Origin: an uncultured Candidatus Saccharibacteria bacterium
GTDB taxonomy: Bacteria; Patescibacteriota; Minisyncoccia; UBA6257; 1-14-0-10-44-23
Reading direction: 5' to 3'
DNA: 64,000 nt
NCBI GenBank assembly: GCA_964460325.1
Contig: CAYWPI010000001.1
Coordinates: 11,105 to 75,104, forward strand
In this document: piece after piece, positions 27,596 through 63,987 of the stretch
Layout of the letters: each line of letters begins with the position of its first letter
How positions within the stretch are numbered: position 1 is the first letter of the stretch
Notes under the pieces: generated by a model
The model's database searches: none
The model's input: the letters and a program-made list of their open reading frames with translations, nothing else
Told to the model about the DNA's origin: nothing
Program-made: the position numbers and the translations under genes

Positions 27596-27873
27596 AAGGC
27601 CCCCAAAACGGAAAAGGAATTTCGTCGAGCCTGGCAACGAGCCAGCTCGAACTATCCTTACCCTGCAACAAGGCCTAGGGATAGTCAAGACGCCAGGCTA
27701 AGCTAGGCCGGGCATGTATCACTTCCTATCGTTGGTGCGTGTGGATCAAAGTCAACAGACATTGATGGGTGGCGGTCAACTAACCATAATCCAGGCGCCA
27801 CCCGGGGACGGAATGAAATTCCTTCCACGCAATATGAATTAAAGTTTGACCCTTTACGGGCCAAACTTTACTG

Positions 27874-27945
27874 TGCGTGTGGAAGGAATCGAACCTTCGA
27901 CCTTTTCATTATCAGTGAAATGCTCTACCACTGAGCTACACACGC
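27874..27945 (-). tRNA. tRNA-Ile(GAT)
   Basis: Manual fold: GCGTGTG acceptor, loop CTGATAA, T-arm GAAGGTTCGATTCCTTC. Confidence 0.8.
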
Positions 27946-28057
27946 AATATTTACTGTAGAGCATTGAAATGCTCTTCCGGGGTGAGTTACCGAATTATAG
28001 TTTTTTGAACCTCACCCGTCGAGACCTGCTGGCCTCGACCCACTGAGCTACACACGC
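27946..28057 (-). repeat. Upstream tRNA module 1: duplicated tRNA-Ile 5' fragment (18 nt) plus three hairpins (GTCGAG...CTCGAC; GGGTGAG...CTCACCC; CGGAAGAGC...GCTCTAC)
   Basis: Direct comparison with 63694-63803, which has the same architecture and conserved GTCGAGGCCA, ATAATTC and CGGAAGAGC motifs. Confidence 0.6.
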
Positions 28058-63262: not shown

Positions 63263-63396
63263 ATGAAGAAAGTGCGTAGTTAGTAGTTGGTAGTGCGTAG
63301 CAAGGGGGCGATGCGAATCATTATACTTAAAAGCCCAAAAAAGGCAAGGCTATAGACTTTTATTCAAAATTCACTAGAATGATTCAATACATCAAT

Positions 63397-63677
63397 GCCG
63401 ATGTAGCTCAGCTGGTAGAGCAACTCCATGGTGGCTCGCAAAGCCCGCCCATTACGTAAGTAATTACGTAATGAATCCCGAATAACGGTTAATATCCCAA
63501 CAAAGTCAGGGCAAGATCCTTCGGCTTCGCTCAGGACAAGACCGTAGCGTCAATTGACGCTCGAACGACTGACAAGGGCTCCGATGCTTGAGATGCGGAG
63601 AAGATACAGTCTAGCCCTTTATGTAAATAGAGGTGTAAGCGAAGGAGTAGGTCGCCGGTTCAATTCCGGCCATCGGC
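63397..63677 (+). tRNA. tRNA interrupted by a group I intron; tentatively tRNA-Thr(GGT) if the splice site is between positions 36 and 37
   Basis: 5' exon GCCGATGTAGCTCAGCTGGTAGAGCAACTCCATGGT. 3' exon AAGGAGTAGGTCGCCGGTTCAATTCCGGCCATCGGCT. The exons fold into a cloverleaf. Anticodon assignment is uncertain. Confidence 0.6.
63433..63640 (+). other. Group I intron (~208 nt, no ORF)
   Basis: P-like GACCGTAGCGTCAATTG, R-like CGAACGACTGACAAGG, S-like AAGATACAGTCTAG (P7 pairing GACTG/CAGTC). 5' exon ends in U and the intron ends in G. Confidence 0.55.
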
Positions 63678-63693
63678 TCACAATTAAATAGCA

Positions 63694-63803
63694 GCTACCA
63701 CCTTAGCTCAGTTGGGTCGAGGCCACCAGGCCGAGACGGGCGAACCGCCTGAGCGTCATAATTCAAAGTTCGCCCCGGAAGAGCTTGCTCTACCGACGAT
63801 ATT
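63694..63803 (+). repeat. Upstream tRNA module 2: duplicated 18-nt 5' fragment of tRNA-Thr(TGT) plus conserved hairpins
   Basis: CCACCTTAGCTCAGTTGG, then GTCGAGGCCACCAGGCCGAGAC, then GGGCGAAC...GTTCGCCC, then CGGAAGAGCTTGCTCTAC. Same organisation as 27946-28057. Confidence 0.6.
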
Positions 63804-63876
63804 GCCACCTTAGCTCAGTTGGTAGAGCAACACTTTTGTAAAGTGAAGGTCCCCGGTTCAAGTCCGGGAGGTGGCT
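63804..63876 (+). tRNA. tRNA-Thr(TGT)
   Basis: Manual fold: GCCACCT acceptor, loop TTTGTAA, T-arm CCCGGTTCAAGTCCGGG. Confidence 0.8.
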
Positions 63877-63965
63877 CAAATGATCTTGAACCGGAAACCC
63901 GGTTGCCGCTCAAGTGGCGGCATTGCGATTTCTAAGTGCTCAAAATCTCGCACAGAAATCGGGAA

Positions 63966-63987
63966 CAAGTCCGGGAGGTGGCTCAAA
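63966..63987 (+). repeat. 22-nt direct repeat of the tRNA-Thr(TGT) 3' end (CAAGTCCGGGAGGTGGCTCAAA)
   Basis: Identical to 63859-63880. Separated from the tRNA by ~85 nt of hairpin-rich sequence. Confidence 0.7.

Follow-up and report, generated by a model that had tools for sequence, protein, structure and literature searches.

The locus examined here raises the question of which tRNA is encoded by an interrupted gene in the window, as we call the whole 64,000-nt stretch of DNA that was analysed, and what kind of element interrupts it. A preliminary description had read it as a tRNA gene, probably for Thr(GGU), carrying a compact, ORF-less group I intron between nucleotides 36 and 37. We consider it very likely that tRNA-Thr(GGU) is indeed split between U36 and A37 by an intron of the group I kind, that this intron belongs to a widespread, divergent family inserted at the same site, and that it would splice itself out of the precursor. 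The gene occupies 63397-63678 of the forward strand and its 209-nt insert lies at 63433-63641, between nucleotides 36 and 37. The exons, the insert and a promoter-like site are as follows:

63353..63380, + strand: promoter-like site TAGACT-16-TAGAAT, 17 nt 5' of the tRNA start, from a consensus scan only
63397..63432, + strand: 5' exon, tRNA-Thr nucleotides 1-36, ending in the anticodon G34 G35 U36
63433..63641, + strand: intron, 209 nt, ORF-less; absent as a gap from loci L129 and L131; 172.6 bits with the family model
63642..63678, + strand: 3' exon, tRNA nucleotides 37-73, from A37 to discriminator U73; CCA is not encoded

Matches to the promoter-like consensus were no more numerous than in shuffled sequences; the stretch at 63353..63380 is kept in the orthologous locus L129, and it may function as the promoter of the gene.

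The exons form the standard cloverleaf that had been claimed for them, with the acceptor stem GCCGATG/CATCGGC, D-arm, anticodon stem ACTCC/GGAGT and T-arm all intact, as read from the sequence and from ARAGORN. In the junction test every junction leaving a 7-nt anticodon loop was enumerated (n=8), and only 63432|63642 combines a U at -1 with a G at the intron end. These are U63432 and G63641, the very bases previously assigned to the 5' and 3' splice sites. Ligation at this junction gives the loop AUGGUAA and the anticodon GGU, and the joined exons are foldable and are called tRNA-Thr(ggt) by ARAGORN. By the identity rules of E. coli tRNA-Thr, which were those used here, the spliced product possesses the Thr features G1-C72, C2-G71, G35, U36 and A37, all of them bases read directly. 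A junction yielding tRNA-Pro(GGG) was ruled out by the enumeration together with the intron-less orthologues. The preliminary description gave the insert as about 208 nt and ended the gene at 63677, which is C72; the insert and the gene both stand, but the former measures 209 nt and the latter ends at 63678, with nucleotide 73. The insert is ORF-less as described, the sole ORF that touches it being a frame of 45 aa which continues into the 3' exon. The predicted fold of the precursor tRNA is more stable than all of 200 shuffled sequences (200/200, z = -3.8), and in the minimum-energy fold U36 is already paired to a G, in a hairpin with the first bases of the intron.

The neighbourhood of the gene provided uninterrupted counterparts. 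A gene for ribosomal protein L33 lies 135 nt upstream of the tRNA on the opposite strand, and its nearest homologue found (96% identity) is in contig L129 (GCA_040960175.1). At the orthologous position this contig has an uninterrupted tRNA-Thr(GGU) gene with a clearly homologous upstream flank, which reads ...GAGCAACTCCATGGT|AAGGAGTAGGTC... across the junction, exactly as in the predicted ligated exons. The intron-less genes of L129 and L131 share the reading ...ACTCCATGGT|AAGGAGTAGGTC..., are identical to the predicted ligated exons here and are called tRNA-Thr(ggt); nucleotides 21-36 of the 5' exon are the same bases in both, and the gap in the alignment with either gene corresponds exactly to 63433-63641. 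The junction enumeration and these orthologues together bear out both the Thr(GGU) identity and the insertion between 36 and 37.

The preliminary description had proposed the Rfam group I covariance model as a check, and formally this check failed: at the gathering threshold Rfam gives no group I match at the locus, the score being 18.6 bits where the gathering score is 50. This weak RF00028 match was obtained in a 701-nt search and spans 63445-63633 (E 0.029). The confident part of its alignment comprises GAAGAUACAGUCUAG against the consensus GAAGAUAUAGUCUAA (J8/7-P7, high posterior probability) and the P9 hairpin. Among the family loci described below the RF00028 gathering score was reached in none of 18, and a match at E <= 10 was found in only one of nine. 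Failure with RF00028 is a known property of this intron family and not evidence against group I, and Rfam is uninformative for the Thr(GGU) introns; the group I assignment therefore rests on other evidence. The sequence elements to which attention had been drawn proved to be real, GACCGT being the 3' strand of P4, CGAACGACTGACAAGG covering J6/7-P7-J7/3-P3' and AAGATACAGTCTAG covering J8/7 and the 3' strand of P7.

Relatives of the intron were sought in one genome per species (GTDB r232) by scanning for tRNA-Thr(GGU) in which position 37 is not A. At least 120 loci were obtained, and interrupted genes were recognised among them by locating the 3' exon in each scan match. This revealed at least 76 interrupted tRNA-Thr(GGU) genes, the window included, with inserts of 176-230 nt (median 193). 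Among the matches listed, the insert is preceded by U36 in 76/76 and ends in G in 76/76, although the last base was not filtered on, and both core motifs are present in 74/76. The hosts, again among the matches listed, are overwhelmingly Patescibacteria, and include Kaiser-, Wolfe-, Jorgensen-, Nomura-, Azam-, Vogel-, Harrison-, Moran-, Magasanik-, Uhr-, Doudna-, Peregrini- and Saccharibacteria. At least 73 distinct Thr(GGU) introns were found across many lineages of this phylum, plus one in Niastella (Bacteroidota). A covariance model (R1) built from 72 other interrupted tRNA-Thr genes, with the window excluded, has a single match in the 64-kb window, at 63423-63648, which covers model positions 1-212 of 212 with a score of 172.6 bits (E 3.9e-61). 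The window intron is thus a member of the family. The alignment also includes L059, a member from the complete Wolfebacteria genome CP011209, which belongs to the 2015 CPR genome series.

The L33 protein encoded beside the tRNA has its best matches in proteins of Patescibacteria, Paceibacterota, Harrisonbacteria and Liptonbacteria, and is 55-70% identical to the L33 adjoining the same intron-bearing tRNA in Harrison-, Jorgensen-, Wolfebacteria and other Paceibacteria. Judging from the sequence, the host has a Paceibacteria-type (Patescibacteria) genome. BLAST disclosed no near-identical relative of the intron and its flanks among the at least 120 genome loci. The Niastella member (L062:5227-5424, NZ_LWBP01000002.1) is a 181-nt intron in a 300-kb contig of a cultured Niastella populi isolate, which suggests that the family extends, or was transferred, beyond the Patescibacteria.

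The architecture of the intron was studied in an alignment of 73 sequences by RNAalifold prediction, after which P3 and P9.0 were added. The elements are:

63430..63449, + strand: P1 hairpin, in which exon G34 G35 U36 pair with C63449, C63448 and G63447
63437..63439, + strand: P1 loop CGC, with its complement in the three terminal intron bases, 63639-63641
63450..63473, + strand: P2 hairpin, 10 bp with a GUAA (GNRA) loop at 63460-63463; compensatory changes in 9/9 modelled pairs
63477..63479, + strand: P3 5' strand CCC, pseudoknotted with GGG 63576-63578 and followed by J3/4 GAAUA, 63480-63484
63485..63490, + strand: P4 5' strand ACGGUU, pairing with GACCGU 63540-63545
63495..63536, + strand: P5, UCC 63495-63497 with GGA 63534-63536; covaries
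63546..63561, + strand: P6 hairpin AGCGUC/GACGCU; compensatory changes in 4/5 modelled pairs
63562..63578, + strand: J6/7 CGAAC, P7 5' strand GACUG (63567-63571), J7/3 ACAA and P3 3' strand GGG (63576-63578)
63579..63600, + strand: P8 hairpin CUCCG/CGGAG; compensatory changes in 4/4 modelled pairs
63601..63611, + strand: J8/7 AAGAUA and P7 3' strand CAGUC; matches the RF00028 consensus GAAGAUAUAGUC in the weak alignment and is invariant in the family
63614..63615, + strand: J7/9 GC, forming P9.0 with 63639-63640; 98.6% paired, with 23 and 22 double changes
63616..63633, + strand: P9 hairpin, 7 bp with a GUAA loop; compensatory changes in 6/6 modelled pairs
63634..63641, + strand: 3' tail UGUAAGCG, in which G63641 is the terminal (omega) G and 63639-63640 pair with J7/9 or the P1 loop

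The anticodon stem, P1, P2, P4, P5, P6, P7, P8 and P9 all emerge independently from RNAalifold, and 35 of the 50 pairs so predicted show compensatory change. With P3 and P9.0 included, 95.6% of 4009 cells are paired; shifting the 3' partners by 1-3 columns lowers this to 34-44%. Changes on both sides occur in 40 of the 55 pairs, and none of 500 shuffles reaches any of the observed measures. The anticodon stem covaries across the intron, with double changes in 5/5 pairs. In P1 the pair U63432.G63447 is the splice-site wobble; it is U.G in 73/73 sequences and is flanked by two invariant G-C pairs with the exon. The part of P1 internal to the intron joins GGCU (63433-63436) to AGCC (63442-63445), leaving C63446 bulged (the minimum-energy fold bulges C63444 instead), and shows compensatory changes in the 73-sequence alignment. 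P3 comprises only 3 bp, which are 99.1% paired with double changes in 1, 5 and 2 sequences per pair; a longer P3, or pairing of its 3' strand with other upstream segments, was ruled out, the covariation favouring CCC/GGG alone. The strands of P4 are complementary, with five pairs invariant and the sixth formed as U.G by 65 sequences and as C-G by 8, and those of P7 (GACUG/CAGUC) are complementary and invariant in all 73, so that for these two helices covariation gives no test. In P6 one pair is G-C in 61 sequences, A-U in 11 and C-G in one. The stretch 63562..63578, whose P7 strand pairs with 63607-63611, is nearly invariant in the 73 sequences, as are J3/4, J4/5, J6/7 and J8/7. J8/7-P7 and J6/7-P7 represent the classical S and R elements.

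Inside P5 the intron is extended by about 33 nt (roughly 63499-63532). The extension aligns to the model as an insert of 33 nt, forms a hairpin in the minimum-energy fold and is missing from L134 and all 72 other aligned members. The helices follow the order P1-P2-P3-P4-P5-P6-P7-P3'-P8-P7'-P9 with a P3/P7 pseudoknot, this arrangement, P3' standing between P7 and P8 and P7' following P8, being the double pseudoknot of group I introns. The family model, the covariation and the core elements together support a compact, ORF-less intron of group I type in tRNA-Thr(GGU) at 36/37. For a group I intron it is atypical in the 3-bp P3 and the 4-nt J7/3.

Three other readings of the locus have to be weighed. 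In default mode ARAGORN did not detect the split gene. In intron mode it detected it at 63397-63679, but named it tRNA-Arg(GCG) with the insert between 34 and 35, as it also did for the interrupted gene of L134. [quoted passage not shown] It is also refuted by the intron-less orthologues, which are Thr(GGU) with identical exons, and the same ARAGORN miscall is recorded in Table 1 of PMC13011429. The gene might instead be dead, having received an inert insertion that is never removed. That the Rfam group I model does not recognise the insert would agree with this, but a perfect cloverleaf has been kept, the anticodon stem has changed in concert on the two sides of the insert in every pair, and across more than 70 species the insert shows 40 covarying pairs and a catalytic core with invariant motifs. 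Nor was a second tRNA-Thr(GGU) found within the 64-kb window. By supplementary table 2 of PMC13011429, complete genomes bearing the intron have two Thr genes by intron-blind tRNAscan-SE, as opposed to three in most other Patescibacteria. On this evidence a dead gene is highly improbable.

A group I-derived intron that lacks autonomous self-splicing, either needing a protein cofactor or splicing only in vivo, is unlikely. The family is divergent, with its 3-bp P3, long J7/3 and scores below the Rfam thresholds, but the U.G pair, the terminal G, P7, J8/7, the J4/5 adenines, P9.0 and the GNRA loops of P2 and P9 are intact and highly conserved, and the proteomes of Patescibacteria are very small. 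In vitro splicing is reported in PMC13011429 for Asn and Asp introns and not for Thr introns; against this, the same paper describes in vitro self-splicing by related tRNA introns of Patescibacteria. We retain a putatively self-splicing group I intron in tRNA-Thr(GGU) as the best explanation of the locus.

The following scheme of self-splicing by this intron is drawn by analogy with established group I chemistry. The anticodon stem would keep both exons together. This is probably the case as it is in the Anabaena pre-tRNA, the exons of which, as Zaug and colleagues are said to have found in 1993, are held together by that stem. The last three exon bases, GGU, pair with the internal guide GCC in P1, where the U.G wobble formed by U36 marks the 5' splice site. 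After U36 the attack would come from a free guanosine occupying P7 (GACUG/CAGUC). The terminal G63641 would then replace the free guanosine in the P7 site, placed there by the 2-bp P9.0 (63614-15 with 63639-40), and the freed 3'-OH of U36 would attack after G63641, joining U36 to A37 in the normal loop AUGGUAA. A P10 helix was considered and rejected, since the AAGG of the 3' exon could form no more than a single pair with the guide, and this one is not conserved.

Complementarity between the P1 loop and the 3' tail is a further feature of the family. This pairing is present in 95.8% of cells, compared with 5-39% when slid, with 13 and 16 sequences changed on both sides, and the two segments covary through the states CGC/GCG, CGU/ACG, CAC/GUG, CAU/AUG and CUC/GAG. 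The tail bases covary with J7/9 as well, and the J7/9 and P1-loop pairings are mutually exclusive. Nine members of the family with a short P1 are missing the loop motif. The loop pairing may represent a parked state, in which the 3' splice site and the omega G would be kept back before step 1, with P9.0 taking over and the omega G being let into the G-site for step 2. More tentatively, the family could be a group I subclass absent from Rfam that uses an undescribed 3'-splice-site switch in place of the missing P10; from the alignment we regard this as possible, at well under even chances. An L1-tail contact was looked for in the Azoarcus cryo-EM paper, and nothing relevant was found there.

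The preliminary description considered both the 36/37 site and a Thr(GGU) host unusual, and neither is. Position 36/37 is the standard site of the introns in tRNA-Arg(CCU) and tRNA-Ile(CAU): Williams 2020 (bioRxiv 10.1101/2020.01.27.920355) lists the classical settings Leu.3Ug, Arg.5Ug, fMet.2Ug and Ile2.5Ug, in which setting 5 denotes 36/37, and adds 17 further tRNA intron settings. Introns in Thr(GGU) at 36/37 have themselves been published and, by our scan, occur commonly throughout the phylum. They were found with tFind (Williams 2020) in three complete Patescibacteria genomes by Nakagawa et al. 2026 (mSystems, PMC13011429, Table 1). These introns are undetected by RF00028, two of the three are named Arg(GCG) 34/35 by ARAGORN, and they are termed 'divergent group I introns' after Castelle et al. 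2018. In the intron tree of that study (PMC13011429) the Thr introns lie on a long branch with Patescibacteria IA introns and not with IC3, and self-splicing is demonstrated there for the Asn and Asp introns.

The window intron is an ordinary further example of this intron class already described in Patescibacteria. It resembles the published cases in its host tRNA, site, size class, absence of an ORF, escape from RF00028 and miscalling as Arg(GCG), but differs in the extension of P5; the published cases number three, as compared with at least 73 distinct introns here. The IC3 introns of Azoarcus tRNA-Ile(CAU) and Agrobacterium tRNA-Arg(CCU) are likewise inserted after U36, are about 200 nt long and ORF-less, and also form P1 with the last bases of the anticodon, including a U.G pair, cap P2 and P9 with GNRA loops and possess a P9.0. 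There is no useful sequence similarity with them, however, and the window intron differs in its 3-bp P3 and 4-nt J7/3; their splicing is experimentally established, whereas we infer that of the Thr family. The tRNA introns of Patescibacteria inserted at 35/36 share the phylum and the location in an anticodon loop, are mostly ORF-less and are reported as nearest on the intron tree; they differ in occupying another site in other tRNAs, in being detected by RF00028 and in their demonstrated self-splicing in vitro, and some encode HNH endonucleases. The cyanobacterial and plastid tRNA-Leu(UAA) intron is also a group I intron in an anticodon loop, whose exons are held by pairing in the anticodon stem, but is an IC3 intron at 34/35 which Rfam finds readily.

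Two other groups of interrupted tRNA genes were noted among the loci. Introns of group I type, 223-250 nt in length and beginning with GGTTTTCGG, occur at 33/34 of tRNA-Phe(GAA) in L001, L014, L033, L037, L041, L071 and L087 (and in L010, L013, L036 and L073), the hosts being Moranbacteria, Magasanikbacteria and MAGs labelled Bdellovibrionales or Gammaproteobacteria. The Phe(GAA) 33/34 intron is listed in PMC13011429. In a Bacillaceae MAG and an alphaproteobacterial MAG (L009:4054-4340 and L109) tRNA-Thr(GGU) is split at 36/37 by introns of 218-229 nt with the core GTAGAGGCCAGACGG...AAGGGATGGTCC, which look like more canonical group I introns. Because these are unrelated to the Patescibacteria-type family, the Thr(GGU) 36/37 site has evidently been colonised by at least two intron lineages.

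Presence of the intron is patchy among close relatives of the window, although it encodes no homing endonuclease. It is found in the window and in L134 (172 bits with the family model), whereas tRNA-Thr(GGU) is without it in L129, L131, L136, L138 and L140; the L33 proteins of these loci are 73-96% identical to that of the window. Since the intron is present or absent among such close relatives, it is, on comparison of these loci, gained or lost over short evolutionary time. An 89-aa free-standing GIY-YIG ORF was observed between the intron-less tRNA-Thr(GGU) and the L33 gene at L136:1623-1892 and L137:153-422, GIY-YIG being a homing-endonuclease fold.

These results do not overturn current understanding. 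They show the class to be far commoner than the three published cases, and to come and go between close relatives without a homing endonuclease. The practical consequence is that standard tRNA finders miss or misname the gene, so that a genome of this kind would seem to be without tRNA-Thr(GGU) or to have an odd tRNA-Arg(GCG), and such misnaming distorts inferences on completeness and codon usage in Patescibacteria. The gene would also be a further instance, in a minimal genome, of RNA self-splicing being required to make an essential tRNA.

Two intact tRNA genes of the window, tRNA-Thr(UGU) at 63804-63877 and tRNA-Ile(GAU) at 27873-27945 (-), have odd flanks in common. The regions concerned are:

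63698..63987 of the window, + strand: tRNA-Thr(UGU) with its flanks
27735..28057 of the window, - strand: tRNA-Ile(GAU) with its flanks

Upstream of each gene there is an exact copy of its own first 18 nt, and then, after the GG of the D-loop, a conserved, structured insert of 66 nt (GTCGAGGCCAsCAGG...GACGGG-stem-CCCCGGA). On the 3' side of the insert follow AGAGC (tRNA nucleotides 21-25) and an inverted copy of the D-arm which is tailored to each tRNA. Downstream there are an inverted copy of T-arm sequence, an insert of about 60 nt and then the 3' end of the tRNA repeated exactly, over 22 nt in the case of Thr and 11 nt in that of Ile. Around tRNA-Thr(UGU) the spacing of both repeats is exactly 107 nt. 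In L129:3571-3722, tRNA-Thr(GGU) and a plain tRNA-Thr(UGU) are 5 nt apart; because this locus has no 66-nt element between its Thr tRNAs, we regard the element as an insertion. By comparison with the same locus, the outer 3' fragment of tRNA-Thr(UGU) in the window adjoins what was ancestrally the downstream flank. The 66-nt element recurs a third time at L131:715-893, with about 90% identity to the Thr copy of the window; it stands before the intron-less tRNA-Thr(GGU) and is preceded by an exact copy of nucleotides 1-18 of that tRNA. The element has no match in Rfam and was not found in the at least 120 genome loci; a pattern scan gave seven chance matches in GC-rich coding DNA of metagenomes and none in viral sequences. 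The layout of the flanks resembles either insertions that duplicate a very long target or att-like scars left by an element that targets tRNA genes.

A recurrent module is also seen 3' of tRNA genes for Tyr, Gln, Asp and Met in Patescibacteria (L026:3612-3900, L046 on the minus strand, L069:2637-2930 and L099 on the minus strand). It consists of a terminator hairpin, an inverted copy of the tRNA 3' end, an intervening stretch of about 80-100 nt and a direct copy of 16-21 nt of the 3' end, and in L046 and L069 the intervening stretch has the motif GAGCGAAGCGAA in common.
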